Source: Rikenellaceae bacterium
Lineage (GTDB): Bacteria; Bacteroidota; Bacteroidia; Bacteroidales; Rikenellaceae
Assembly: GCA_015059845.1 (NCBI GenBank)
Contig: SUZR01000011.1
Location: 2,845-66,844, forward strand
Length of the DNA: 64,000 bases
Direction: 5' to 3'
Notes under the pieces: model-generated
Told to the model about the DNA's origin: nothing
The model's input: only the letters and a program-made list of their open reading frames with translations
Database searches by the model: none
Program-made: the position numbers and the translations under genes
Shown here: positions 23,191 through 57,745 of the stretch, one piece after another
Numbering within the stretch: position 1 is the first letter of the stretch
How the letters are laid out: each line of letters opens with the position of its first letter

Positions 23191-23244
23191 GATTATCGTG
23201 CAAACAACAAAATTATAATATTTTCATACAATACCACAAAGGGC

Positions 23245-23276
23245 ATTGTTTATTTACGAAAAGTTTAATACTTTTG
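23245..23276 (+). promoter_or_regulatory. Promoter of candidate rod RNA 1
   Basis: ATTG at 23245-48, 20-nt spacer, exact TACTTTTG at 23269-76; predicted +1 near 23281. Confidence 0.7.
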
Positions 23277-23280
23277 TTAA

Positions 23281-23554
23281 AGTAATCGAATAGGTTACAG
23301 ACATACAGAAAGTGTTTTCGCAGTCTTTACAAGAAAATGTGGAAGTTTTCAAAGAGAGAAGGCAGACGAATAGCACTCATCTCTTGTATATGTATGGGAA
23401 CGTTGGCACGGCTTGTGTCGATGCCTCACGCTATACAGGTGTGGGGCATTGTATCGTTTATTCTCTCAAGGTCTTTCCACAACCTTCTTGTAAATAAACG
23501 GGAATCATCTCCACACTTTCTATTTATAATAATCTGCCGCATAGGAGATATTAC
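23281..23554 (+). ncRNA. Candidate rod-shaped structured RNA, copy 1 (unassigned family)
   Basis: Nested complementary blocks AGAAAGTGT/ACACTTTCT, TTTACAAGAA/TTCTTGTAAA, TGTGGAAG/TTTCCACA, GAGAGAA/TTCTCTC, AGACGA/TCGTTT; own promoter; homologous to 56770-57029. Confidence 0.75.
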
Positions 23555-23572
23555 GGCAAAACAATTATTACA

Positions 23573-24409
23573 ATGAAAAGATTAGTCATATTAGGAGTTG
23601 CGGTGTGTATGCTCGTTGCCTGCAAACAGACAAATAACATCCCTACGCACATCACCGAGGAGAATTACCTCAAGGCCGACAGCGCACTATGGGCGGAGTT
23701 TGAGCGCGACACCGAACCGATAATTGAGCAGATGGATGCCGAGCCTGAGCGCTTTGATGTCCTATATGAACTGTATAAATCTATCGAGGAGGCCACCGAT
23801 AAACGAAACTACGAACTTGCAATAGAGTATGCAGCTGTGCCGAGCGGATTAAGAAGAGTCTTTACTGTACGAAACCAGCTGAGTAAAGAGCAGATGCAAA
23901 AAACGCTCTCGGAGATTCCCGATTCAATGCAACAATCATTTTACGGCAAGCTCATCAAAGAGTATATCGAGGCCGACCAGATTGAGGAGGGAGATATGTA
24001 TCAGCCCTTTGAGTGTATGTGTGAGGATGGCCAGCCATTCGATTGGTCGCGCTTAGACGGAAAAAAGACACTATTGTGCTACGGCGGATTGGGCTGTATG
24101 GGTGATGTGGGGCGCGAGTTGTTAAAGAAGTGGAACGAGCAGTACGCGAGTAAAGATTTCCAAATCGTAATCTATGCCCCCGAAGTTGATAATTACGAGG
24201 AGCTTGTAGAGGATAAGAAGTATTGGCGCGATAATGGGGTGACAGATTACATAGCCATTGCCGATTTCTTGGGTGATGCCAGCCCCATAAGGATTATATA
24301 CAGCTCGCAGGCTAAGCCCACGTGCTTTATGATTGATAGCCAGGGTCGCGTGGTTATTAAGTCAATGGGACTTGCCCCCGAGCGTATGGAGGCCTTCTTA
24401 GCGCAATAA
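23573..24409 (+). CDS. Lipoprotein with a TlpA/thioredoxin-like domain lacking CxxC
   Basis: Lipobox LVAC; FECMCEDG..FDWSRLDGKKTLL; PTCFMIDSQGRVV; active-site region reads YGGLGCMGD. Confidence 0.7.
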   Translation: MKRLVILGVAVCMLVACKQTNNIPTHITEENYLKADSALWAEFERDTEPIIEQMDAEPERFDVLYELYKSIEEATDKRNYELAIEYAAVPSGLRRVFTVRNQLSKEQMQKTLSEIPDSMQQSFYGKLIKEYIEADQIEEGDMYQPFECMCEDGQPFDWSRLDGKKTLLCYGGLGCMGDVGRELLKKWNEQYASKDFQIVIYAPEVDNYEELVEDKKYWRDNGVTDYIAIADFLGDASPIRIIYSSQAKPTCFMIDSQGRVVIKSMGLAPERMEAFLAQ

Positions 24410-41685: not shown

Positions 41686-41887
41686 AAATATTTTAAGTTA
41701 ATAAAAGTTACGCTGTGGAGCAGAACCATAAATTAACTCAAAACATCCTTTTGCCGTAGAGCCAATGCCAACGGGGCAGCGGCGCAGTTGTTCGCCTGAG
41801 GCGGAACAAAAACTTATATTTTACGGATAAAATTAGTTTTGACTTGTCCCGTAGTCCTGCAGGTCACAAATCTTGTTTAACGCAAAA

Positions 41888-42100
41888 GGTAGGTCTTCTG
41901 ACTTGTTCCATTTGTGACGCCTTCCCAACGCCGCAGCGTCAGTGGCAAAGAGTGTCACAAACTAACTTCGTTTATCGGGCGGTGCATCAGGCATTTTCAG
42001 CCAATCGCCCCGAAGTGGAACTCACAGCAACAGGTATTGTTCCGGATTCTCACCGGATTCCCTATTATTCTCGGTGGCCGAGGGCCACACGGGAACCGTT
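41888..42100 (-). promoter_or_regulatory. Cobalamin riboswitch
   Basis: Minus strand AATAGGGAATCCGGTGAGAATCCGGAACAATACC..GCTGTGA..GCCACTG..GGGAAGG..AAGTCAGAAGACCTACC; upstream of the btu operon. Confidence 0.95.
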
Positions 42101-42109
42101 TGCTTAGTG

Positions 42110-42117
42110 CAAAGATA
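42110..42117 (-). promoter_or_regulatory. -7 box of the B12 operon
   Basis: TATCTTTG on the minus strand just upstream of the aptamer. Confidence 0.7.
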
Positions 42118-46309: not shown

Positions 46310-47707
46310 CTACTCCTGGCCTACGGTAGCCTCAACATCCTCTACGGTGATAGGAATCATCTTATCGCCTCCGATGCGGTATGAGCCCGCGTCGGTTACA
46401 ACCAAGTCATCCTCCAGACGGATGCCGCCGAAGTCGCGGTACTGCTCCAGCTTATCGTAGTTAACGATACCCTTGCACTTACCCTCGGCCTTATACTTAT
46501 CAATCAAATCGGGAACGAAGTAGATACCAGGCTCATCCGAGAGAACGGTGCCCGGCATCAGTCGCCACCACTGGCGTGTGATGCAGCAAGCCGAAGCCTT
46601 GGCACGCTCCTCCAACTCGGCAAATGAGAATGAGCGCTCGCCGATATTCTCGCAGTCGTGAACATCCAGACCGATACCGTGACCCAAACCGTGAGGCATA
46701 AAGAGATATGCAGCACCTGCGGCGATAGCGTCATCCACCGAGCCACGCACCAAATCCAGCTCCTTCAAGCCCTCGATAAGGGTGTGGAACGCCACATCTG
46801 AGTACTCCGAGTACATCATACCCGGGCGCAGAGCCGCAGCGGCATCGTCGTGAGCCTTCAATACGATATTATATACATCCTTCTGCTTCTCGGTAAACTT
46901 ACCACCCACGGGGAAGGTACGGGTATGGTCAGACACGTAGCCGTTCAGATGCTCACCACCCGCGTCGCACAACAGCAGGCGACCCTGCTGCATCGTGCCC
47001 GAGTGGTCGTGGTTATGCAGCACCTCGCCGTGCTGCGAGAGGATAGTGGTGAACGACACGCCTGTGCCATAGCGCAGAGCCATACCATCGACCATACCTG
47101 CCACCTCGTGCTCCGAGCGGCCGGGGCGTGTGGCACGCATAGCGGTAGTGTGCATCTGGTAGCCAATCTCGAAGGCCTCCTCCAGAGCTGCAAGCTCCTC
47201 AGCACCCTTCTTCTCGCGCATCTCGGCAACGGCAAACAGCAAATCGATAGACTTGCGGGCGTGCAACATCTCAGGCTTGATACCGAGCAGATCCGACAAC
47301 ATCAGCTTCGTCTCACCGCGATAAGGGGGAAGGTAATGCACCTCACGACCCAAAGCGATGGCACGCTGAACATCCACCACGAGCTGTGCCATAGGCTTCG
47401 CCTCGGCAACGCCCACCTCATCGGCAAAGTCGCGGATTGTGGGCTGCGGGCCCATCCAGATGATATCCTCAACGGTGAAGTCATCGCCATAGAGCGTATC
47501 CACACCGCTCTCCACGTCAATCACACCAGCCAGCGCGGGAACGCTATGGCCGAAGAAGTAGAGGAACGTTGAGTCCTGACGGAAGTGATATGTATTATTG
47601 GGATAGTTGAAGGGTGACTCCACGTTACCGGGGAGCAAGATGATACCCTTACCAATGCGGCGGCGCAACTCGGCGCGGCGTGCTGAATAAATCTCTGATG
47701 CGAACAT
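46310..47707 (-). CDS. pepP: Xaa-Pro aminopeptidase (M24B)
   Basis: FRQDSTFLYF, LCDAG..YVSDHTRT, PHGLGHGIGLDVHD, EPGIY and GIRLED motifs. Confidence 0.93.
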   Translation of the reverse strand: MFASEIYSARRAELRRRIGKGIILLPGNVESPFNYPNNTYHFRQDSTFLYFFGHSVPALAGVIDVESGVDTLYGDDFTVEDIIWMGPQPTIRDFADEVGVAEAKPMAQLVVDVQRAIALGREVHYLPPYRGETKLMLSDLLGIKPEMLHARKSIDLLFAVAEMREKKGAEELAALEEAFEIGYQMHTTAMRATRPGRSEHEVAGMVDGMALRYGTGVSFTTILSQHGEVLHNHDHSGTMQQGRLLLCDAGGEHLNGYVSDHTRTFPVGGKFTEKQKDVYNIVLKAHDDAAAALRPGMMYSEYSDVAFHTLIEGLKELDLVRGSVDDAIAAGAAYLFMPHGLGHGIGLDVHDCENIGERSFSFAELEERAKASACCITRQWWRLMPGTVLSDEPGIYFVPDLIDKYKAEGKCKGIVNYDKLEQYRDFGGIRLEDDLVVTDAGSYRIGGDKMIPITVEDVEATVGQE

Positions 47708-53201: not shown

Positions 53202-55364
53202 ATGAAAAACTATTCAGCTAAAGAGATTAAGAACATCGTTCTCATCGGCGCGCCTGGCACGGGAAAAACTACCCTTGCTGAAGCGATGGCTTTTGAGGGT
53301 AAGGTTATCGACCGCAGGGGTAGTATCGAGACTAACAACACTATCTCGGATAATACAGATATTGAGCACGAGTACAAGCGCTCAATATACTCAACAACCC
53401 TTTTCACCGAGTTTATGGGCCGCAAGCTCAATATCATAGACTGCCCGGGTTCTGACGACTTCTGTGGCAACCTCTTCTCTGCCTTCAAGGTGGGTGACGT
53501 AGGTATTATGGTTATGAACGCCCAGAACGGTTGGGAGGTAGGTGACGAAATTCAGTCACGCTACGCTCGCATCCTGAACAAGCCTTTGATTGGTGTTATC
53601 AACCAGTTGGATGGCGACAAGGCTAACTACGAGGCTACAATAGAGGGTATTCGCGCTGCATCACGCGTGAAGCCCGTAATCGTACAGTACCCCGTAGAGG
53701 TTGGTCCTGGTTTCAACGCATTCATCGACGTACTTATGATGAAGATGTACCGCTTCACCGACGAGAACGGTACTCGCGAGGAGTTGGATATTCCTGCTGA
53801 CCAGTTGGAGTACGCTCAGGAGTTGAATCAGGAGCTCTCAGAGGCTGCTGCAGTATATGACGACGCATTGATGGAGCTCTACTTCGAGAAGGGCGCCCTC
53901 ACACAGGACGATATCCGCTCAGGTTTGAAGCTCGGCGTTGCTAACCGCGAGATTATGCCTATCTTCTGCTGTTCAGGTAAGCGCGACATCGGTACAAAGC
54001 GTTTGATGGAGTTCATCATCAACGTTGCTCCCGGCCCGACTACTCCTACAACAGCGCCCAAGTTCGTATCTACCGAGGGTGAGGAGCTGGTTGCAGACGA
54101 GAATCTGCCCACAGCAGTATTCGTATTCAAGAGCCAGATTGAGCAGCACATCGGTGAGATTACTTACTTCCGCGTAGTACGTGGTAAGATTACCGAGGGT
54201 ATGGAGCTCGTGAATAGCCGCACAGGCAACAAGGAGAAGCTCTCGCAGTTGTTCGCCGTAGCAGGTAAGAACCGTATCAAGGTTACTGAGCTGTCAGCAG
54301 GTGACATCGGTTGCACCGTGAAGCTGAAGGCTACTCGCACAAACGACACGTTGGCAGCTGCTGGAGCACACGTGAAGGTTGAGCCTATCGTATTCCCCGA
54401 GCCTCGCTACCGCGCAGCTGTGAAGGCTAAGGAGCAGGGCGACGAGGAGAAGCTGGGTAAGCTGTTGAACGACATCAAGTACGAGGACCCCACAATCTTG
54501 GTTGAGTACTCTAAGGAGCTCAAGCAGACCATTATTCAGGGTCAGGGTGAGCACCACCTCAACATCGTTAAGACACGCTTGGCAAACGATAATAAGCTCG
54601 ATATTGAGTACTTCGCACCGAAGATTCCTTATCGTGAGACAATCACCAAGGTAGCACAGGCAGACTACCGCCACAAGAAGCAGTCTGGTGGTGCTGGTCA
54701 GTTTGGTGAGGTACATATGGTTATCGAGCCCTACTACGAGGGTATGCCCGAGCCTACAAAGTACAAGGTTGGCGGCAAGGAGATTACCGTAAATATCAAG
54801 GGTAAGGAGGAGTATGACCTCGATTGGGGCGGCAAGTTGCAGTTCTACAACTCAATCGTTGGTGGTGCTATCGACGCACGCTTTATGCCCGCTATCCTGA
54901 AGGGTATTATGGAGAAGATGGACGAGGGTCCGCTCACAGGTTCTTACGCCCGCGATATCCGCGTAGTTATCTACGATGGTAAGATGCACCCCGTAGATTC
55001 AAATGAAATCTCATTTAAGCTGGCTGCACGTAACGCCTTCAAGGAGGCATTCCGCAACGCTGGTCCCAAGATTATGGAGCCTATCTACGCTGTGGAGGTA
55101 TTGACCCCGAGCGAGTATATGGGTGCCGTGATGAGCGACCTGCAGAACCGCCGCGCAATGATTATGGGTATGGAGTCTGACAAGGGCTTCGATAAGCTGA
55201 ACGCTCGCGTGCCTCTGGCCGAGTTGTACCGCTACTCAACATCGTTGTCATCACTCACATCTGGTGCTGCTACATACACAATGCAGTTCGCATCATACGA
55301 GCAGGTTCCCGCAGACGTTCAGGACAAGCTGCTTAAGGCTTACACCGACACTGACGAGGATTAA
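53202..55364 (+). CDS. fusA2: Elongation factor G paralog (EF-G2)
   Basis: EF-G domain order with degenerate G motifs (GAPGTGKT, RSIYS, DCPG, NQLD), HKKQSGGAGQFG and a domain-IV insert. Confidence 0.9.
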   Translation: MKNYSAKEIKNIVLIGAPGTGKTTLAEAMAFEGKVIDRRGSIETNNTISDNTDIEHEYKRSIYSTTLFTEFMGRKLNIIDCPGSDDFCGNLFSAFKVGDVGIMVMNAQNGWEVGDEIQSRYARILNKPLIGVINQLDGDKANYEATIEGIRAASRVKPVIVQYPVEVGPGFNAFIDVLMMKMYRFTDENGTREELDIPADQLEYAQELNQELSEAAAVYDDALMELYFEKGALTQDDIRSGLKLGVANREIMPIFCCSGKRDIGTKRLMEFIINVAPGPTTPTTAPKFVSTEGEELVADENLPTAVFVFKSQIEQHIGEITYFRVVRGKITEGMELVNSRTGNKEKLSQLFAVAGKNRIKVTELSAGDIGCTVKLKATRTNDTLAAAGAHVKVEPIVFPEPRYRAAVKAKEQGDEEKLGKLLNDIKYEDPTILVEYSKELKQTIIQGQGEHHLNIVKTRLANDNKLDIEYFAPKIPYRETITKVAQADYRHKKQSGGAGQFGEVHMVIEPYYEGMPEPTKYKVGGKEITVNIKGKEEYDLDWGGKLQFYNSIVGGAIDARFMPAILKGIMEKMDEGPLTGSYARDIRVVIYDGKMHPVDSNEISFKLAARNAFKEAFRNAGPKIMEPIYAVEVLTPSEYMGAVMSDLQNRRAMIMGMESDKGFDKLNARVPLAELYRYSTSLSSLTSGAATYTMQFASYEQVPADVQDKLLKAYTDTDED

Positions 55365-56018: not shown

Positions 56019-56582
56019 ATGAAAAGACTATTAATTTATCTTTGTGCGGTGTCAATTTTGGCATCTTGCATCAAGCTGCCGGATATAGATGTCTCCGGGG
56101 AATCGCAGGAGGCTAAAGCGGCCTTACTGGCCCAGTTCTCATCTGCGAATATTAAAAATTGGGATAGCCGATTAGGTTATGTTGTTGTTAATTTTACGCT
56201 TGATGTCGAAAATGATACACCCGCCAATTGCGTAGCGTGGTACGACAGAAACGGTAAGTGGTATCTTACCGAGAGCAGTATGAAGTACCAGGAGCTCCCC
56301 GCGGCTGTCACAGCAGCCTTCGAGGGTGGCGACTTCAAAGATTGTAATATCGAAGAGGTCTATTGCCTTGATGCTCCCGAGTTCACAGAGTACGCTATGC
56401 TTATCACTGGTAAGATTTACGGCTATGCGCAGAGAGGTTTTCTCTACTACAAGGAGAACGGCACGTTGCACATAAGCATCGTAAATCCTCGCTCAGATTA
56501 CACCTACGGAGATTATCTGTTGGCTCCGATTTGTAAAAAGGGCGACGGCAGTAATACCGACAGCACCCCGCTTGAGAATTAA
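56019..56582 (+). CDS. Lipoprotein with a PepSY-like (beta-lactamase-inhibitor-like) domain
   Basis: Lipobox LASC; AWYDRNGKWYLTE..ELPAAVTAAF pattern. Confidence 0.7.
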   Translation: MKRLLIYLCAVSILASCIKLPDIDVSGESQEAKAALLAQFSSANIKNWDSRLGYVVVNFTLDVENDTPANCVAWYDRNGKWYLTESSMKYQELPAAVTAAFEGGDFKDCNIEEVYCLDAPEFTEYAMLITGKIYGYAQRGFLYYKENGTLHISIVNPRSDYTYGDYLLAPICKKGDGSNTDSTPLEN

Positions 56583-56637: not shown

Positions 56638-56684
56638 GCGGTACGTCTATAGCTGATAGCAATAGACGTGCCGCTTTTTGTTTT
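56638..56684 (+). terminator. Terminator after the PepSY-like lipoprotein gene
   Basis: GCGGTACGTCTAT/ATAGACGTGCCGC then TTTTTGTTTT. Confidence 0.85.
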
Positions 56685-56769
56685 CTACATAGTAAATCAT
56701 TACGACCACAACTGCATAGAGAGCGTAACAAAGAAGATGATAATCGTTACCATAATCATCACACACTAC

Positions 56770-57029
56770 ATCGCGGCCCGAGCGATATCATTAAAACCTA
56801 AAACATAACCCATATAAACAGAAAAGTGCGAGCCTGTTTCTATCCAACGGTAGGCCTTCGACTGCCTTATGGTAGATATAACGACTCACACTTTGGCGGT
56901 ATATGTCTTTAGAACATAATACATACCAAAATGAGCGCTCGTCATTCCCTACCATAATGAGTTGTCGAAGTTCACCGTTGAGGAAGAAAAAACGCTTTCC
57001 AATAAATATGTCTGCCGCGCACTGCGACT
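56770..57029 (-). ncRNA. Candidate rod-shaped structured RNA, copy 2 (same family as 23281-23554)
   Basis: Nested blocks CAACGGT/ACCGTTG, CTTCGAC/GTCGAAG, TTATGGTAG/CTACCATAA, ATGACGA/TCGTTAT; own -7 box; four sequence blocks shared with copy 1. Confidence 0.75.
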
Positions 57030-57032
57030 ATA

Positions 57033-57040
57033 CAAAGGTA
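57033..57040 (-). promoter_or_regulatory. -7 box of candidate rod RNA 2
   Basis: TACCTTTG on the minus strand just downstream of the rplQ terminator; no clear -33 TTTG. Confidence 0.6.
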
Positions 57041-57075
57041 ATAATAAATTTCTATTTCCCTTGCCCCTCTGCCAC

Positions 57076-57108
57076 AAAAAATAAGGCCCTCCCAAAAGGG
57101 AGAGCCTT
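57076..57108 (-). terminator. Terminator of the alpha operon (after rplQ)
   Basis: Minus strand AAGGCTCTCCC-TTTT-GGGAGGGCCTT-ATTTTTT. Confidence 0.85.
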
Positions 57109-57190: not shown

Positions 57191-57745
57191 TTACATCTTC
57201 TTACCTACGTTGGTCTTCTTTGCAACGGGTGCAGCCTTAGCTGTTGTAGCCTTAGGAGCCTTGGGAGCCTTAGCCTTTACTACTGTTGCATCCTCAACTG
57301 CGTCGGTCTTCTTTGTTGACTTGCGTGAACGACGAGTCTTGGGCTTAGCCTCCTCGATAGAAACTACCTTACCGAAGGTATATGCCTCGTTGAAATCAAC
57401 GAACTCGATGATACACATATCCGCTGCGTCACCCAGACGGAAGCCCGTCTTCAAGATGCGGGTGTAGCCACCGGGACGCTCTGCAATCTTGGGAGCGATG
57501 GTGCGGAACAACTCAGTTACGGCCTCCTTCTGCTTGAGGTATGAGAAAACTACACGACGTGAGTGGGTAGTGTCCTCCTTTGACTTGGTTACCAGAGGCT
57601 CAACAAACTGCTGTACAGCCTTTGCCTTAGCTACCGTAGTCTCGATACGCTTGTGCAGAATAAGCGACGATGCCATATTTGAAAGCATAGCCTTACGGTG
57701 GCCAGCCTGACGGCCAAGGTGGTTAAAATTCTTATTGTGTCTCAT
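57191..57745 (-). CDS. rplQ: 50S ribosomal protein L17 with Lys/Ala-rich C-terminal tail
   Basis: [26 protein letters not shown] and [10 protein letters not shown] motifs. Confidence 0.98.

Follow-up and report, generated by a model that had tools for sequence, protein, structure and literature searches.

The closest parallel to the RNA described here is cATT of the Bacillus subtilis plasmid pLS20, a zipper-type attenuator whose long stem zips by default and thereby swallows one strand of a terminator; for its trigger, a protein and an antisense RNA have both been put forward (Gonzalez-Alvarez et al., NAR 2026; PMC13401043). Riboswitches and the T-box, PyrR and ANTAR-target leaders are likewise structured leaders that act in cis through mutually exclusive helices. 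Further known RNAs resemble it in other ways: 6S RNA, including 6S-Flavo and Bacteroidales-1, is rod-like and has its own promoter; hok-type type I toxin mRNAs have a long folded untranslated region ahead of a small hydrophobic ORF, a likeness confined to copy 2 (see below); and the EAR and put RNAs, which act in processive antitermination, are pseudoknotted cis RNAs in the leaders of cell-surface operons.

We analyzed a stretch of 64,000 nucleotides (hereafter the window) from a genome of the genus Alistipes. To our knowledge, almost no RNA biology has been described for this prevalent gut genus, and large structured RNAs with pseudoknots and covariation of the kind reported here are rare. 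Downstream of rplQ, the window encodes a strongly folded RNA, predicted to be ~270 bases long, which we refer to as copy 2. On balance, we take copy 2 to be a divergent, type-2 member of an uncatalogued family of structured 5' leaders of ~270-300 nt that gate read-through into the gene behind them. The genome holds three copies. Across the 2.09-Mb genome, a motif derived from copies 1 and 2 retrieved exactly one extra site, which lies on a different contig, and profile searches of the genome also supported three copies. We define type 1 as copies 1 and 3 and their relatives, and type 2 as the rplQ-linked set that includes copy 2. The features of the locus and of the other copies are as follows.

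57191..57745, minus strand: rplQ (ribosomal protein L17), the ORF upstream of copy 2, with relatives in Alistipes genomes.
57087..57104, minus strand: intrinsic terminator of rplQ (terminator scan), which lies between the ribosomal operon and the promoter of the leader itself.
56783-57041, minus strand: copy 2, full-length covariance-model match (44.8 bits, E ~4e-12).
57033..57040, minus strand: promoter box TACCTTTG (TAnnTTTG, predicted -7), present in all 10 orthologues.
57014..57028, minus strand: P0, the 5' hairpin GUCGC-AGUGC-GCGGC, with five base pairs intact in 10/10 orthologues.
57001..57013, minus strand: linker AGACAUAUUUAUU, single-stranded and conserved, common to both subtypes.
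56821..57000, minus strand: rod, from minimum free energy (MFE) folding, covariance-model match and covariation.
57000-56995 with 56826-56821, minus strand: P1, GGAAAG with CUUUUC, the rod base.
56980-56974 with 56851-56845, minus strand: P2, CAACGGT/ACCGTTG, rod helix.
56970-56964 with 56862-56856, minus strand: P3, CTTCGAC/GTCGAAG, rod helix.
56957-56949 with 56875-56867, minus strand: P4, TTATGGTAG/CTACCATAA, rod helix, with the upper helices and apex beyond it.
56883..56894, minus strand: AAAGUGUGAGUC, 5' strand of an alternative, terminator-like hairpin; pairs with GGCUCGCACUUU at 56834-56823.
56829..56834, minus strand: GGCUCG, pseudoknot strand in a 3' internal loop of the rod, unpaired in the MFE structure.
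56812..56820, minus strand: U-rich tract UGUUUAUAU, directly 3' of the rod base and of the alternative hairpin.
56770..56786, minus strand: 3' hairpin AUCGC-UCGGGCC-GCGAU; its stem sequence differs among orthologues and its pairing is kept.
56700..56753, minus strand: small ORF MVTIIIFFVTLSMQLWS, 17 codons and stop, with an ORF at the same place in 10 species.
23268..23571, plus strand: copy 1 (type 1), leader of a 278-aa lipoprotein gene at 23573-24409.
G000:C7, ~54720-55020, minus strand, outside the window: copy 3 (type 1), from motif and profile searches.
G000:C7, ~54569-54685 (L005 1569-1685), minus strand: 38-45-aa peptide after copy 3, found also at L018, L030 and L034.

As a preliminary description of this DNA had noted, box TACCTTTG comes directly after the rplQ terminator. 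We take TAnnTTTG to be a Bacteroidota -7 promoter element on the strength of the established Bacteroides sigma-A consensus, in which case transcription would start ~4-8 nt downstream of it. Type-1 loci carry an additional box farther upstream, ACAATGTCCC-N4-6-GAGTGTTGTTCGTTTCGGAAA, whose downstream end is at the -33 region and whose upstream edge is sharp (for example at 23205-23262 in the window and at ~1400-1470 in locus L023); it may be a shared transcription-factor site or an UP-like element. This box (ACAATGTCCC..GAGTGTTGTTCGTTT) was not found upstream of copy 2 or its orthologues and is thus a type-1 feature, not a family-wide one. The preliminary description had also treated a position after a housekeeping operon as common to the copies. 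Judging from the flanking genes of other-species homologues, 0/29 of which are flanked by asd, ftsY or the copy-1 lipoprotein gene, that position is incidental.

On the other side of copy 2, a 187-aa lipoprotein gene (window 56019-56582, plus strand) converges on the copy 2 unit and is absent from this place in genome G006; its terminator hairpin (56645-56685) could also end the transcript of the leader and small ORF. Beyond it, a gene for a 720-aa EF-G-like GTPase paralogue (window 53202-55364, plus strand) is convergent to the ribosomal operon, and in close relatives this gene directly adjoins the rplQ spacer.

We next compared copy 2 with its relatives. Syntenic orthologues downstream of rplQ were present in 10 of the 80 retrieved rplQ loci, and also in G006; the type-2 set comprises 10 sequences from 10 species, the window included (locus L083 is identical to G006). 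The closest rplQ loci are from Alistipes, in metagenome-assembled genomes mainly from animal and human guts, and the rplQ locus of the closest relative (L036) is entirely without the element. In that relative, short-repeat arrays of the TATAGG/CCTATAA type (..ttataggaattataggaattatagg.., L036 ~2150-2240) fill the rplQ-downstream spacer where this genome has copy 2; elsewhere in this genome, similar repeats form a long foldback (G000:C14 ~140900-141050). The family as a whole is widespread among gut members of the genus: BLAST with copy 1 gave matches in 158/201 Alistipes species genomes at 73-87% identity, and three or more matches were scored in most of these 158 genomes. Outside the genus, copy 2 had no BLAST match in 16 other families. 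Candidates for copy 1 at 46630, 29951 and 6995 of the window were rejected as chance motif matches within genes. In a genome-wide fold screen of intergenic windows, the three known copies were among the top rods and the remaining top rods lacked the family motifs. An intergenic, nearly perfect long inverted repeat with ggcagtagggctgtacactcagtactatccctactgcc at its centre (G000:C1 ~169560-169700, minus strand) is unrelated to the family.

Neither blastn-short nor nhmmer, with single sequences or with profiles, linked copy 2 to copies 1 and 3. A covariance model, R1, was then built from 31 type-1 sequences only and used to search 338 kb, consisting of the window and 82 loci. R1 matched copy 2 over its full length (model positions 1-305), and it matched all type-2 orthologues in the same way with 41-61 bits (E 1e-11 to 1e-17), while nothing stronger than 17 bits (E 0.0016) was found elsewhere in the 338 kb. 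Since sequence profiles fail and a model that contains only type-1 sequences finds copy 2, the shared architecture is confirmed by a test that is not circular. Thus, these searches demonstrate a single family, and they bear out the earlier proposals that copies 1 and 2 are paralogous and that they share one architecture with substituted stems. The sequence blocks said to be common to both copies are likewise found as claimed on the minus strand: CAGACATA at 57014-57007, GAAAGCGTTTT at 56999-56989, GACGAGCGCTCAT at 56943-56931 and CGCACTTTTCTGTTTATA at 56830-56813.

Does the family correspond to an RNA that is already known? No Rfam family matched the copy 2 locus when the full window was scanned at gathering thresholds or when the locus itself was searched at E up to 10, which supports the earlier interpretation, and six family loci matched no Rfam family at E up to 1. 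In particular, no riboswitch aptamer of a known class was matched by Rfam at the family loci. We found no description of this RNA in the literature, nor did we find it in the searchable part of the supplement (200/408 files) of a survey of structured RNAs in the human microbiome (PMC8040213). Elsewhere in the window, a cobalamin riboswitch (Rfam RF00174, 74.5 bits) is present at 41871-42115 on the minus strand. Phage records contained no match to the family. Three viral-contig matches to an 18-mer were dismissed as chance, being inside genes and without a model match, and a phage origin of the leader family finds no support in the phage and viral-contig searches.

From 5' to 3', the family architecture consists of a promoter, a small hairpin, a long rod, a U-rich tract, a 3' hairpin that forms a pseudoknot, and an ORF. 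A 270-nt stretch of copy 2 folds into one long imperfect hairpin with an MFE of -89.2 kcal/mol (z = -4.2; 0/200 shuffles as good), and copy 1 (23281-23560, plus strand) gave z = -5.0 in the same test. Across the family the rod has about nine helical segments and several invariant internal loops. Copy 2 has the structural elements that characterize the family, namely the 5' hairpin, rod helices P1-P7 and a loop-loop pseudoknot, and its helices P2, P3 and P4 are the three perfect stems that had been singled out from the sequence and lie where they had been placed. Linker AGACAUAUUUAUU corresponds to the CAGACAUA block, whose first C is the last base of P0; at the family level the linker is (C)AGACAUAU, conserved and single-stranded. 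The U-rich tract (CUUUCUnUUUAUA at the family level) is kept in both subtypes. An extension of the rod past this tract (ACAUAU/AUAUG) is possible in 9/9 type-2 and 13/31 type-1 sequences, in a stretch that is A/U-rich.

The 3' hairpin reaches back to the rod. In copy 2, its loop CGGGCC (56780-56775) pairs with GGCUCG (56834-56829). Type-1 members pair GGAGAUGAU with AUCAUCUCC at this place and type-2 members pair CGAGCC or CGGGCC with GGCUCG, GGCUCG being complementary to the loop of the 3' hairpin in type-2 orthologues. The preliminary description had instead paired the 5' pentamer with the 3' end of the RNA. This did not hold, since GTCGC pairs locally with GCGGC (57028-57024 with 57018-57014) in 10/10 orthologues and the distant GCGAU belongs to the 3' hairpin, as the 3' strand of its stem. 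Furthermore, a long-range complement of the pentamer is missing from the 3' tail in 4/10 orthologues and in a fifth occurs only well downstream of the 3' hairpin, and in type 1 the P0 stems and the 3' hairpin stems are not complementary at all.

We then asked whether these pairings are maintained by compensatory change. In the alignment of the 31 type-1 sequences, 96.7% of the cells in rod and pseudoknot were paired, and both sides had changed at 16 pairs (101 cells); 0/500 shuffles scored as high, and slid controls gave at most 19 both-side-changed cells. In the combined alignment of 41 sequences, which favours the structure somewhat because it was fitted to the covariance model, 97.1% of rod cells were paired and both sides had changed at 26/56 pairs (261 cells), again with 0/500 shuffles as high and with 25-47 cells in slid controls. 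The same alignment showed both-side changes at 6/6 pairs of P0, for which compensatory variants such as ACCGC/GCGGU and AUCGC/GCGAU occur in orthologues. P4 has at least eight different sequences among members and is paired in each, and P3 is invariant within each type, with 5/7 pairs fully substituted between the types and all of them paired. The type-1 pseudoknot alone showed both-side changes at 5/7 pairs, one of which occurs as A-U (15 sequences) and as U-A (12 sequences). Together, the alignments demonstrate the predicted structure and the pseudoknot, and they substantiate the view that it is the structure that is under selection, on a scaffold that stays constant while the stem sequences are replaced.

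The 3' half of the rod can also fold on its own. In copy 2, 74 nt of this half alone reach -28.2 kcal/mol (z = -4.0), and the U-rich tract UGUUUAUAU follows. The alternative helices AAAGUGUGAGUC/GGCUCGCACUUU, UAUCUA/UGGAUA and AGGC/GCCU are stacked and end just before that tract. The mean z of the 3' half alone is ~-4.1 in type 1 and -4.4 in type 2, compared with -1.8 and 0.0 for the 5' half, and by eye a matching alternative hairpin in the 5' half is inconsistent among orthologues. The sequences that make up the alternative helices differ between the two subtypes. Because the alternative hairpin takes up 4 nt of the pseudoknot strand in type 1 and all 6 nt of it in copy 2, hairpin and pseudoknot are mutually exclusive. 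In silico, the leader thus combines exclusive helices with a U-rich tract upstream of a gene, as a zipper-type attenuator does. Covariation of the alternative hairpin itself is weak (3 cells; 2/500 shuffles as high) because the hairpin consists mostly of sequence that is invariant within each subtype, and the changes in the sole clade that has them are explained by rod and pseudoknot too. Moreover, the U-rich tract directly follows the rod base as well, and the rod itself might terminate.

These properties suggest a switch, in which we infer transcription, termination, the trigger and the direction of regulation. The leader would be transcribed from its own promoter and would fold into the 5' hairpin, the long rod and the 3' hairpin kissing an internal loop of the rod, and the RNA would then run into the downstream ORF, which encodes the conserved 17-codon hydrophobic peptide at copy 2 and is mostly a surface lipoprotein gene at other loci. 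In this form, with rod and pseudoknot zipped, the leader would be permissive for read-through. If a protein or an RNA, for instance, prevented the 5' arm from pairing, the 3' arm would fold on itself, and its stable hairpin and the U-rich tract would constitute a terminator at which transcription would end before the ORF. The rod is predicted to be ~20 kcal/mol more stable than the two-hairpin state; being thermodynamically dominant, it would form by default, and a trigger would be needed.

The leader would accordingly be a terminator/antiterminator device, for which the zipper-type attenuator appears to be the best mechanistic analogy since a hairpin resembling a terminator can form when the 3' half refolds; an attenuator was among the options listed in the preliminary description, and it is the one that the evidence favours. 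As in cATT, a long imperfect stem in the 5' leader is preceded by a small hairpin, zipping would sequester one terminator strand, and the antiterminator form would be the default. The two differ in that the 5' strand of the putative Alistipes terminator lies deep inside the rod, so that switching would refold the whole 3' arm, and in that the Alistipes leader adds a pseudoknot whose partner is a hairpin located 3' of the U-rich tract. There is no sequence relationship, the hosts belong to different phyla, cATT serves a conjugation operon and the Alistipes leaders serve single surface-protein genes, and termination is demonstrated for cATT, whereas the Alistipes switch is predicted in silico. 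Invariant loop nucleotides suggest a bound partner, as in riboswitches and T-box-type leaders; unlike these and the PyrR and ANTAR leaders, the family has no Rfam match and its genes share no metabolic theme. Unlike EAR and put, to which it shows no similarity, it precedes units that are single short genes without internal terminators to bypass.

Alternatively, the leader could act post-transcriptionally, with the rod and pseudoknot protecting the 5' end of the mRNA from nucleases or keeping the A/U-rich start region either accessible or closed to ribosomes, in which case the alternative hairpin would be incidental and no termination switch would exist. This is rather unlikely, although the 3' hairpin and pseudoknot lie only ~10-20 nt upstream of the start codon, the rod is dominant and the alternative hairpin shows little covariation of its own. 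About nine helices and many invariant nucleotides in the loops would be more than a mere stabilizer requires, and such a role would leave unexplained why self-complementarity is confined to the 3' half in both subtypes, where different sequences provide it.

We next turned to the genes behind the leaders. In each of the 41 family members examined, an ORF in the same orientation begins shortly after the 3' hairpin (mostly ~10-20 nt). In type 1, the ATG of the first sizeable ORF, as picked automatically, lies 41-50 nt past the core in 20/31 loci, and in ~23/31 once three mis-picked starts were corrected by hand; in type 2, the ATG follows the 3' hairpin by ~10-20 nt in most loci. At copy 2, the start of the small ORF (56753, or an in-frame ATG at 56759 that would add two residues) lies 10-16 nt past the 3' hairpin. 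All 10 species with the type-2 locus have an ORF of 17-23 codons in this position, which makes the earlier statement that copy 2 is not a leader of any annotated CDS wrong in substance. Over 13 codons, variable sites numbered 11, 4 and 11 at codon positions 1, 2 and 3; position 2 is far more conserved than positions 1 and 3, which indicates selection for a hydrophobic peptide. Because the covarying partner strand of the pseudoknot is found on the far side of the U-rich tract, the functional RNA reaches past the tract and is continuous with the ORF, which makes it a 5' leader rather than a free small RNA. Thus, conserved placement and orientation demonstrate a link between the leaders and the downstream ORFs.

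The type-1 leaders are followed mainly by lipoprotein genes whose products have a surface-export-like acidic stretch after the lipobox cysteine; these proteins include BspA-type LRR, DUF4988, WG-repeat and redoxin-like members, and a few small membrane proteins also occur. In 4/31 type-1 loci the leader precedes a family of 38-45-aa peptides (e.g. MEKQNYIAPEIEIIEVAIEKGFAQTQLEGYDKKDDMTW and ..YLAPEFEVVAVEVEQGFALS..NPEQDW), and at copy 3 this peptide gene is just upstream of a BspA-type LRR lipoprotein gene. The 38-45-aa peptides have no Pfam or NCBIfam match, and an NCBIfam search of the small peptides gave none either. The downstream genes encode diverse surface proteins that offer no clue to a signal and no common metabolic theme. 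The leader family probably gates expression of genes for surface proteins and small membrane peptides.

The preliminary description had favoured a free small RNA. With its 3' end at the U-rich tract, such an RNA would be ~210-230 nt long and would work in trans, as a protein sponge, 6S-like decoy or antisense RNA; it would have a promoter of its own, as is predicted here, and a hairpin followed by a U-rich tract, and copy 2 does face a convergent gene. We judge this explanation improbable: it does not accommodate a covarying pseudoknot partner beyond the U-rich tract or the co-oriented ORF that all 41 members have at a short and largely constant distance. A 6S-like decoy had also been considered in the preliminary description. 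The Rfam models of 6S (RF00013), 6S-Flavo and Bacteroidales-1 remained unmatched at E up to 10 on copy 2 and at E up to 1 on six family loci, and the large central bubble of 6S RNA is absent, the MFE rod having just small internal loops and a few unpaired nucleotides on its 3' side; unlike 6S RNA, moreover, the Alistipes leader is multicopy and continuous with an ORF. The proposal of a guide-RNA precursor fares no better, as the variable parts are all within helices and no nuclease gene is nearby.

At copy 2 alone, the conserved hydrophobic ORF of 17-23 codons behind a long folded leader could suggest a type I toxin-antitoxin system, in which a toxic peptide is kept from translation by the folded 5' UTR. 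This is very improbable because the same leader family serves ordinary lipoprotein genes elsewhere; in addition, we identified no gene for an antisense RNA, 10 species have inherited the locus vertically beside rplQ, and the proposed 5'-3' fold-back, to be expected of hok-type mRNAs, is not conserved. Finally, a repeat at the DNA level whose predicted fold is never formed (a MITE/REP-like element, a recombination site or a mobile promoter cassette) would agree with the multiple copies, with best other-species homologues at non-syntenic sites and with the sharp upstream boundary in type 1, yet it is barely credible given 299 G-U/U-G versus 17 A-C/C-A cells, a pseudoknot with a downstream loop, co-orientation with a gene in 41/41 members, the lack of visible terminal inverted repeats and target duplications, and the absence of the family from phage records. 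The same excess of G-U over A-C cells demonstrates that the fold belongs to the strand that bears the promoter and the ORF, which fits RNA and not double-stranded DNA.

Returning to the termination switch, we tentatively propose, as a possibility that goes beyond the reading of copy 2 as a gating leader, that the family is a bistable riboregulator of the zipper type that is locked by a pseudoknot and responds to a factor acting in trans, and that it may thereby coordinate a changeable set of surface lipoproteins and small membrane peptides across Alistipes. The leader family is present in most Alistipes species, usually in several copies, and is tied to cell-surface genes, namely those for BspA-type leucine-rich-repeat, DUF4988 and WG-repeat lipoproteins and for small membrane peptides. 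Its type-2 branch exposes an unannotated, conserved hydrophobic ORF of 17-23 codons beside the ribosomal protein operon. If the mechanism is correct, the recently described zipper-type attenuation would extend beyond Gram-positive plasmids, and the surface of major gut bacteria would be under a layer of RNA-level control that has no Rfam counterpart. If the leader gates expression, it would thus provide a handle on how Alistipes varies the surface that it shows to host and phage.
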